32,000 nt of DNA from Zestosphaera tikiterensis (GTDB lineage Archaea > Thermoproteota > Thermoprotei_A > Sulfolobales > NBVN01): assembly GCA_003056265.1 (NCBI GenBank), contig NBVN01000004.1, forward strand, positions 150,001-182,000, given 5' to 3'. Of the stretch, positions 21,227-28,163 are shown in pieces (positions within the stretch are counted from its first letter, which is position 1; every line of letters begins with the position of its first letter). The position numbers and the translations under genes were made by a program. Below the pieces are notes generated by a model, which did not search any database, had not been told where the DNA came from, and saw only the letters and a program-made list of their open reading frames with translations.

Positions 21227-21286
21227 AAAGTCAGCTACCCCTAAAGATCATCACCACTCAGTGGGCATGACTCACATCATTACTTT
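21227..21286 (-). ncRNA. C/D box sRNA (dual-guide 2'-O-methylation guide)
   Basis: The minus strand reads AAAGUA-AUGAUGU(C)-GAGUCAUGCCCA(12 nt)-CUGA(D')-GUG-GUGAUGA(C')-UCUUUAGGGGUAG(13 nt)-CUGA(D)-CUUU. Box order and the 12/13-nt spacers are canonical for archaeal sRNAs. A short AAAG/CUUU terminal stem is present. It is intergenic and on the same strand as the flanking genes. Confidence 0.75.
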
Positions 21287-27155: not shown

Positions 27156-27833
27156 CTACCCTTTGAATATCTTCGTTATGTCTTCAACGCTTGCTTCCTT
27201 AGCTAACACGTATAGTAAAGTACCTTCTTTAAGGACGTCCTCCTTAGACGGGATTGTAAACTCCACGCCGTTAAACATGAACATGATCTTAACGTCTTCA
27301 GGTAGTTGAAGTTCTTCAACTTTCTTATTTGTGGCTTTATCGGTGCTGGTTAAAACGATGCCGTAGATCTTGTACTCCCCCACCTCCCCAAGTATCTTAG
27401 GCTCCGTTAAAGTATCTAAGTACGTCCTGAATATATTCCCTATCACTGAAGGGACTATCACAGGTATGCCTAAATCCAGCTTAACAAGCATATCAGCTAT
27501 CTTGCTTGACTTAACCCTAGCCATCCTTAAGTTAACGCCGTAATGCTTCGCTAAAGTTAAGACGAAAACATTAACTTCATCCCTATCAGTTAAAGCTATC
27601 ACCACGTCGAAATCGCTTAAGTTTATTGAGGATGTGGCTTGAGATTCAAACAATGAAATATCCGTTGCGTCACCGTTAACAACCGTTACGTCGAAAGCCT
27701 TACTTATTTCTTCAGCTCTCCTAGGGTTGATCTCAACAACGGCTATATCATGTTTTTTAAGTTCTTTATGCTTTGATATCGTTGAGAGCAACTCATAAGT
27801 TACGGAACCACCGCCGATTATGAGTATCCTCAC
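27156..27833 (-). CDS. trkA: TrkA-type K+ transport regulatory protein (TrkA-N + TrkA-C)
   Basis: The GTG start gives RILIIGGGSVTYEL, a Rossmann GxGxxG motif. At 225 aa it fits the RCK N+C domain architecture. It is followed 6 nt later by the MscS gene. Confidence 0.8.
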   Translation of the reverse strand: MRILIIGGGSVTYELLSTISKHKELKKHDIAVVEINPRRAEEISKAFDVTVVNGDATDISLFESQATSSINLSDFDVVIALTDRDEVNVFVLTLAKHYGVNLRMARVKSSKIADMLVKLDLGIPVIVPSVIGNIFRTYLDTLTEPKILGEVGEYKIYGIVLTSTDKATNKKVEELQLPEDVKIMFMFNGVEFTIPSKEDVLKEGTLLYVLAKEASVEDITKIFKG

Positions 27834-27880
27834 CTACTCACCACCTGTTTGAGGCTCCGCCTTTTAAGGTGGGGTGAATG

Positions 27881-27909
27881 TTTATAAGCTTTCTCTAGCT
27901 TAATATATT
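27881..27909. promoter_or_regulatory. Divergent promoter region between trkA and ncRNA candidate R3
   Basis: The sequence is TTTATAAG-CTTTCTCTAGC-TTAATATATT. A/T boxes are usable on either strand, and an AAGCT/AGCTT inverted repeat lies between them. Confidence 0.4.
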
Positions 27910-27911
27910 GA

Positions 27912-28085
27912 GTTGGGTGTGGGCAACCGTGGCTTGGGATGAGTCCCACACCTTCCCGGTGTTGGCGGCGGGAGCTGATAGATGATGCGCCCTCTGTGAG
28001 GGGTTTCAGAGAGGTGATGGAAGCCCTAGGGGGAGAACCTCCGCCATGAATGGCGGAGAGCCGTCAGCTACTCACTACCCCTAAA
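27912..28085 (+). ncRNA. Candidate structured RNA (R3), GC-rich, rich in K-turn-like GAUGA motifs
   Basis: This is a GC island in a 330-bp intergenic region with no ORF. Stems seen by eye are GGTGTGGG/CCCACACC (27915-22/27944-51), AGCTGA/TCAGCT (27973-78/28064-69), CTCCGCCA-TGAA-TGGCGGAG (28040-59) and CCCTC-TGT-GAGGG. The motifs GGATGAGT, CTGA-TAG-ATGATG and GGTGATGG are present. The strand is chosen from promoter position and motif orientation only. Confidence 0.4.
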
Positions 28086-28163
28086 TTAAATGTTTCATCA
28101 CTTAAATAATGTTACATACTTTACTATGTAGAGACTTGAAGAACCTTCACCCAGTTTAAAACA

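Follow-up and report, generated by a model that had tools for sequence, protein, structure and literature searches.

The closest described relatives of the element reported here are the PATEs of the IS200/IS605 / IS1341 group, known from Haloquadratum walsbyi (PMC3119063) and, as PATE-like elements, from Geobacillus stearothermophilus (PMC10055086). PATEs are short, encode no protein and occur as many dispersed copies. Their ends are common to TnpB-bearing elements of the same genome, both ends carry subterminal hairpins, and insertion occurs beside a fixed short motif that is not duplicated. In IS200/IS605 elements the left end lies directly beside the target motif, and the right end closes with a similar motif encoded by the transposon (PMC10055086). 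A second related system is the omega RNA (reRNA) that partners proteins of the TnpB/Cas12f fold (ISDra2, PDB 8exa and 8h1j; ISFba1, PDB 8iaz). Its scaffold ends at the right end of the element and is followed by a variable 3' segment derived from the flank. In characterised TnpB systems tnpB and the omega RNA are read from the same strand, the RNA overlapping the gene at its 3' end (PMC10691335). Archaeal ncRNAs at the ends of TnpB elements also include the sotRNAs of IS1341-type tnpB genes in Halobacterium salinarum (PMC4615843), which are sense-overlapping and lie within the tnpB 3' end. Two further RNA classes bear on the locus. In HgcC (Rfam RF00062), a GC-rich RNA about 130 nt long that comes from a hyperthermophile with an AT-rich genome, a terminal hairpin is followed by a GA-rich stretch and the sequence GUCAG; all of these have counterparts here. 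Archaeal C/D box guide RNAs engage their targets by contiguous Watson-Crick pairs that adjoin the D box and include the N+5 position.

The window, a 32,000-nt stretch of the Zestosphaera tikiterensis genome, contains a GC-rich island beside trkA that had been predicted to encode an ncRNA. The island is not a unique ncRNA but the RNA module of a 226-bp protein-less mini-transposon of the IS200/IS605 type (Table 1). The genome of this organism (1.8 Mb in 19 contigs, 42% GC) contains about 19 copies of the repeat at 83-90% identity by blastn, and a covariance model built from these copies finds 19 full copies and one fragment. When the copies are aligned together with their flanks, conservation sets in directly after TCACC and stops exactly at GTCAGC, in all copies and in relatives as well, and beyond GTCAGC the tail is different in every copy. 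An unaltered TCACC borders the left edge in 18 of the 19 copies, and in relatives too. The TCAGC of the terminus is its transposon-encoded counterpart and differs from it at a single position, in agreement with the published logic of IS605 elements (PMC10055086) and as in TnpB systems. The span of the window copy was set by homology to a 227-bp filled/empty pair of sites (see below), and no ORF of 50 aa or more is found within it. Imperfect subterminal hairpins are present at both ends. The right one shows compensatory changes, and the left end with its hairpin is similar to that of the IS of this genome that bears tnpA. The RNA family was found in five of 40 relatives, with one to three copies in each, beside unrelated genes and never at trkA.

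Table 1. Features of the window copy and of related sites in the same genome. Positions without a contig prefix are those of the window; C2 and C14 refer to the genome assembly.
Feature	Position	Strand	Basis
Protein-less mini-transposon (PATE), entire, 226 bp	27843-28068	+	blastn, covariance model, alignment, filled/empty pair
TCACC, target or transposon-adjacent motif (TAM) in host DNA	27838-27842	+	Left edge of copies
Left-end subterminal imperfect hairpin, 7-bp stem, 6-nt loop	27855-27874	+	Conserved in copies and relatives
Near-palindromic TATA box, core inside 27880-27889	27881-27887		Conserved in all short copies
Structured RNA scaffold, omega-RNA-like, 157 nt	27912-28068	+	Covariance model, covariation
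RNA hairpin	27915-27953	+	Part of the 157-nt scaffold
RNA closing helix	27961-27969 with 28060-28068	+	Part of the 157-nt scaffold
RNA central hairpin	27990-28033	+	Part of the 157-nt scaffold
RNA right-end hairpin	28039-28059	+	Part of the 157-nt scaffold
K-loop-like CUGA...UGAUG motif, D'-then-C' order	27975-27988	+	Conserved in relatives
Further K-loop-like motifs	27936-27943, 28007-28020	+	Similar to the motif at 27975-27988
GTCAGC, invariant transposon terminus	28063-28068	+	Conservation stops here in all copies and relatives
Unique host flank; guide segment if the RNA reads through	28069-28092	+	Tails unique to each copy
Displaced trkA TATA box	28082-28090	-	Aligns with relatives
trkA, host gene split from its promoter	27156-27833	-	Pfam TrkA_N and TrkA_C; orthologues in relatives
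Canonical C/D box sRNA, D guide complementary to the 11-mer	21227-21286	-	Boxes readable; orthologues
HgcC-like matches 3' of canonical TnpB ORFs	C2:408296-408418, C2:135587-135708, C14:550754-550875		Same genome

Two properties set the element apart from the PATEs described previously. It carries a complete, promoter-driven gene for a structured RNA, which takes up 70% of its length, and its TATA box is near-palindromic and probably serves a neighbouring host gene as well. The box lies about 25 nt upstream of the conserved 5' end of the RNA at 27912, and as an archaeal promoter it would drive the RNA rightward and trkA leftward. Several minor observations concern individual copies and their edges. 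A 72-nt decayed fragment of the RNA (model positions 77-147) is present at C2:417152-417223. The first seven or so nucleotides of the element vary far more between copies than the remainder does (for example 27843-27849 in the window, or the copy at C14:411411-411566). In one copy this variable start is identical to the 8 nt with which its own right flank begins, and the left flank of the window copy contains an 8-mer that is found again at the right junction, 28068-28075.

The mode of insertion can be read from a filled and an empty site that coexist in the assembly. The copy on contig C13 has an 18-nt tail that recurs without mismatch at C2:183970-183987, immediately after a TCACC. Comparison of the filled site (C13:2451-2677) with the empty one (C2:183965-183987) reveals 227 bp inserted exactly between TCACC and the tail, no target-site duplication, and flanks identical at 90 of 95 and 101 of 104 positions (about 96%). 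Exact insertion after TCACC without duplication is the signature of 'peel-and-paste' elements of the IS200/IS605 type. A target-site duplication had been considered on account of the similarity of left and right junctions in two copies (permutation P = 0.03), and it is contradicted by this pair. The coexistence of the two sites reflects either a recent segmental duplication that predated the insertion or the status of contig C13 as a strain variant. The empty site on C2 is a perfect TCACC-plus-tail match for the RNA of the C13 copy; apart from this paralogous site, a search of the genome for trans targets of the 19 tails, within three mismatches and beside TCACC, found none. At the window locus, the site before insertion would have had TCACC joined directly to position 28069.

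The RNA encoded by the element is predicted to fold with -69 kcal/mol (z = -2.1). Its structure is conserved. In an alignment of 18 sequences drawn from this genome, five relatives and three named assemblies, 92.8% of the alignment cells are paired, compared with about 45% when the partners are slid. Compensatory changes occur in 23 of the 42 pairs, and none of 500 shuffles reaches the observed values. G-U pairs outnumber A-C pairs by 121 to 29, which favours selection on a plus-strand RNA over selection on duplex DNA or on the opposite strand. The last nine bases of the RNA pair with its closing-helix partner at 27961-27969, so that the variable tail emerges directly from the closing helix. 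The TATA box, the fold and strong covariation across at least six genomes thus bear out the original prediction of a GC-rich, promoter-equipped, structured RNA on the plus strand, divergent from trkA. That prediction had also held the island to be distinct from SRP RNA, RNase P RNA, 5S rRNA and the C/D and H/ACA classes, and Rfam agrees. At gathering thresholds the window yields a single tRNA and nothing else. In a permissive scan HgcC is the best match, over 27952-28080, at 22.4 bits (E = 0.004) against a threshold of 50, and the 5' half of the RNA is unrelated to it; matches of the island to C/D families, on both strands, are very weak. The K-loop-like motifs of the RNA (Table 1) explain both these weak C/D matches (sR58, sR41) and the GAUGA-type motifs that had been noted in the island, and they may be bound by L7Ae. 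Characterised omega RNAs share no sequence similarity with the RNA, whose K-loop-like motifs further distinguish it from them.

Better HgcC-like matches than that of the island are found elsewhere in the same genome. These matches, also below threshold, lie 40-50 nt downstream of the zinc-ribbon motifs of canonical TnpB proteins, just 3' of the ORFs, and end in a hairpin and GGTCAG or GGTCAT, after which the DNA is variable. Their position and ending indicate that the HgcC-type RNAs of this genome are the right-end (omega) RNAs of canonical TnpB elements. The right end of the PATE RNA is of the same type. Relative to the transposon, the RNA occupies the place of an omega RNA, with its 3' end at the right end of the element and reading outward; only the nuclease gene is flipped.

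This nuclease gene is retained in one full-length copy of the element, the RNA of which lies at L039:3417-3572. It is a 373-aa ORF (C14:377105-378223), and its start and that of the RNA, which is read from the other strand, are 192 nt apart. Just past the 3' end of the ORF, adjoining the start of rpL2, are a hairpin like that of the left end and a TATA box, which places the length of the full element at about 1.5 kb. Left-end hairpin, TATA box and RNA are common to the full-length and the short copies, and the 18 short copies appear from their sequence to be internal deletions in which the left-end TATA region was fused to the RNA promoter. The 373-aa ORF matches Pfam PF07282 (26.1 bits), and its structure model (pLDDT 84) has Cas12f (6e-12), ISFba1 TnpB (2e-9) and ISDra2 TnpB (8e-6) as its top Foldseek matches. 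Three aspartates (D179, D280 and D355) do not vary across 16 homologues, and neither do two CxxC pairs. The modelled protein accordingly has a predicted TnpB/Cas12f RuvC fold with an intact triad, the middle acidic residue of which is a putative assignment. Homologues with about 60% identity are present in Vulcanisaeta, Ignisphaera and Desulfurococcaceae assemblies. For three of these homologues upstream DNA is available (a Desulfurococcaceae MAG, an Ignisphaera MAG and Vulcanisaeta sp. JCM 14467), and in each of them a divergent RNA of this family lies at a distance of 189-197 nt from the start of the gene. The RNA and the TnpB-fold gene have been inherited together in four genomes from two orders. 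Near more distant homologues of the Thermofilales (36% identity) a search for RNAs of this family gave nothing above noise. The genome encodes one Y1 TnpA (Y1_Tnp, C2:108751-109107) and about 13 canonical TnpB proteins, and this single TnpA would mobilise the copies in trans.

In known TnpB systems gene and RNA share a strand, whereas here they are encoded on opposite strands, and the RNA is served by a separate promoter situated about 190 nt from the start of the nuclease gene. The RNA differs likewise from the sotRNAs in being divergent from the gene and not overlapping it. No such divergent arrangement of RNA and nuclease gene was found in the TnpB classification paper (PMC10691335), in which omega RNAs lie downstream of tnpB, or in a search of the full-text literature. 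The family is best described as a TnpB-type system in which nuclease gene and guide-like RNA are no longer coupled and form divergent units that share a promoter region.

Taken together, it is likely that 27843-28068 is a non-autonomous PATE of the IS200/IS605 type that carries a probable TnpB-type guide RNA, and that its resemblance to a host sRNA, discussed below, is coincidental. A family of short elements would have arisen by internal deletion from the 1.5-kb element, which has the same ends and bears the nuclease gene on the opposite strand. One such PATE would then have inserted 3' of TCACC, between trkA and the promoter of that gene, moved, as the other copies may be, by the single Y1 TnpA. 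Its proposed layout comprises a left end with a subterminal hairpin, the near-palindromic TATA box and the RNA gene stopping at GTCAGC, with the last helix and hairpin of the RNA forming the right end of the element. Transcribed from its own promoter, the RNA would act as the omega-type guide of the 373-aa nuclease and would continue past the right end into the flank, whose first 16-20 nt (28069 onward) would be the guide itself. The nuclease would recognise TCACC together with the guide, a combination that amounts to the empty donor site.

For the function of the RNA itself the balance is closer, and we lean modestly towards its being the guide RNA of a nuclease of the TnpB type with a flipped gene. 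Two findings count against this role: the arrangement of RNA and gene is unlike that of every characterised TnpB, and a perfect site of TAM plus guide for the C13 copy coexists with it in the assembly, which is not expected if the nuclease is active, unless C13 represents a strain variant. The latter finding would be accommodated if the RNA were instead a transposon-control or host-regulatory RNA, comparable to the sotRNAs and to sRNAs derived from IS200, or if the pairing represented mainly ssDNA structures read by TnpA, a protein that recognises subterminal hairpins (PMC10055086). A role of this kind would also suit the 18 of 19 copies that lack a nuclease gene and lie at gene starts with a bidirectional TATA box. 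We regard it as unlikely, since covariation extends over the full 157 nt and beyond the two end hairpins, the G-U excess argues for a plus-strand RNA, and the RNA keeps both the position of an omega RNA and its linkage to the TnpB-fold gene. If the RNA is indeed a guide with a flipped nuclease gene, it is one with a bidirectional promoter of its own, and the PATEs scatter 18 extra guide genes and portable promoters before housekeeping genes. With a small hyperthermophile nuclease of 373 aa, TCACC as the candidate TAM and a 157-nt scaffold, the system is directly testable.

The insertion beside trkA has a further consequence for the host gene. The complement of TCACC, GGTGA, resembles a Shine-Dalgarno motif and lies 4 nt before the GTG start codon of trkA. 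In nine relatives the intergenic region upstream of trkA is short, with a GGTGA-like motif 4-10 nt and an A/T-rich, TATA-like box about 30 nt upstream of the gene, and the reverse complement of 28069-28092 aligns with the trkA TATA region of these nine. The presence of GGTGA beside trkA, and of sequence related to the TATA region of the relatives on the far side of the element, indicates that the insertion split trkA from its own promoter. Most likely trkA is now driven by the near-palindromic TATA box of the element. The same geometry before other genes is seen for 7 of the 18 short copies, compared with 17.6% of all GGTGA sites (P = 0.027), and fits the survival of insertions at intergenic Shine-Dalgarno sites. 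Genes directly downstream of protein-less copies include rpS12 and that of the proteasome beta subunit in addition to trkA. By placing a bidirectional promoter and a structured RNA upstream of genes, such derivatives provide a concrete route by which a transposon may rewire host promoters.

The 3' part of the island had also been linked to the C/D box sRNA of the window by three collinear blocks, and all three are present at both loci: GTCAGCTAC at 28063-71 and 21230-38, the 11-mer CTACCCCTAAA at 28075-85 and 21235-45, and TCATCAC at 28095-101 and 21248-54. Six of the nine bases of GTCAGCTAC are the invariant last six bases of the repeat, and two copies of it were reached in 3 of 100 shuffles. 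TCATCAC occurs eight times in the window. The 11-mer lies in the host flank, outside the repeat and the conserved RNA, and overlaps the displaced trkA promoter. A match of this length had been considered improbable by chance, which holds within the window (2 occurrences against 0.04 expected) but not for the genome as a whole, where two more perfect copies (C2:47835 and C14:96626) compare with about one expected.

According to one reading of these blocks, a plus-strand transcript extends into the flank and the D guide of the sRNA directs 2'-O-methylation of C28079. A host C/D box sRNP would then modify the guide segment of a transposon-borne TnpB guide RNA, which, if true, would constitute cross-talk between the archaeal RNA-modification machinery and the RNA-guided nuclease of a mobile element. 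The pairing itself resembles that of archaeal guides and their targets, as 11 contiguous Watson-Crick pairs abut the D box and cover N+5 at C28079, where at least 9-10 bp are expected of a methylation target. A search of the rRNA operon and of 39 tRNAs for an alternative target of the D guide gave no match of 10 nt or more. The 19 tails were compared with 34 guides from 17 candidate sRNAs, collected with a regular expression that surely misses many; against these guides only 5 of 4000 random 40-mers gave a match of 11 nt (P about 0.001 for a single 40-nt segment). With 19 tails to consider, one 11-nt match is expected by chance with a probability of about 0.024 for this incomplete list of guides, and none of the other 18 tails exceeds 8 nt. 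Established archaeal targets are conserved rRNA or tRNA sites, whereas this candidate is a strain-specific flank of a mobile element that overlaps sequence aligning with the ancestral trkA TATA region. Orthologues of the sRNA with both guide cores conserved are present in more than 20 relatives from several families, most of which lack the element family, so that the guide is conserved where the candidate target does not exist. Methylation of C28079 is for these reasons very improbable, and a TnpB guide with a flipped gene is far more probable. The pairing is nominally rare for one pair of loci, which counts against coincidence; we nevertheless infer that the match is coincidental. The apparent guide and target, a tempting false lead, are explained by a transposon terminus and host promoter DNA.

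Several observations on the sRNA guides and on the rRNA genes may be added. The D' guide is matched over 9 nt by the 23S region (C14:122281), and the best 9-mer of the D guide falls within the 16S span, in a stretch of low GC that resembles an intron (C14:117177). The 16S rRNA gene (C14:115846-118146) measures 2301 nt compared with 1478 nt for the model, an excess that implies about 800 nt of insertions (introns); a block of 39% GC lies at about 116500-117000. A different 11-mer, CCTAAAGATCA, is common to the same sRNA locus and the tail, C16:1277-1316, of the minus-strand copy C16:1317-1473. The two 11-mer matches to the sRNA locus are jointly not significant over the 19 tails (P about 0.09).

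The other reading proposed for the blocks was that the minus strand of 28063-28140 carries a diverged, insertion-bearing paralog of the sRNA. GUGAUGA (28101-28095) and CUGA (28067-28064) do occur there in the correct minus-strand order, with a faint additional likeness (AAAGTA) upstream and an Rfam match to sR18. The latter, at 14.7 bits, is far under the threshold of 45. The CUGA that would serve as D box is part of the transposon terminus that is invariant in all 19 copies, the spacer is 27 nt and not about 12, and C and D' boxes are absent. The local alignment of the tail with the sRNA ranks about 865th genome-wide (E = 218), and Smith-Waterman scores of all tails against the sRNA locus show no enrichment (P about 0.09). 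A paralog was rejected on this alignment rank and this null result, and it is the least probable of the explanations considered here. In three relatives (G003:C1, G006:C12 and G008:C87) the orthologue of the C/D sRNA lies 7-14 kb from trkA on one contig, as it does in the window; this retained spacing indicates that the neighbourhood is syntenic across genera.
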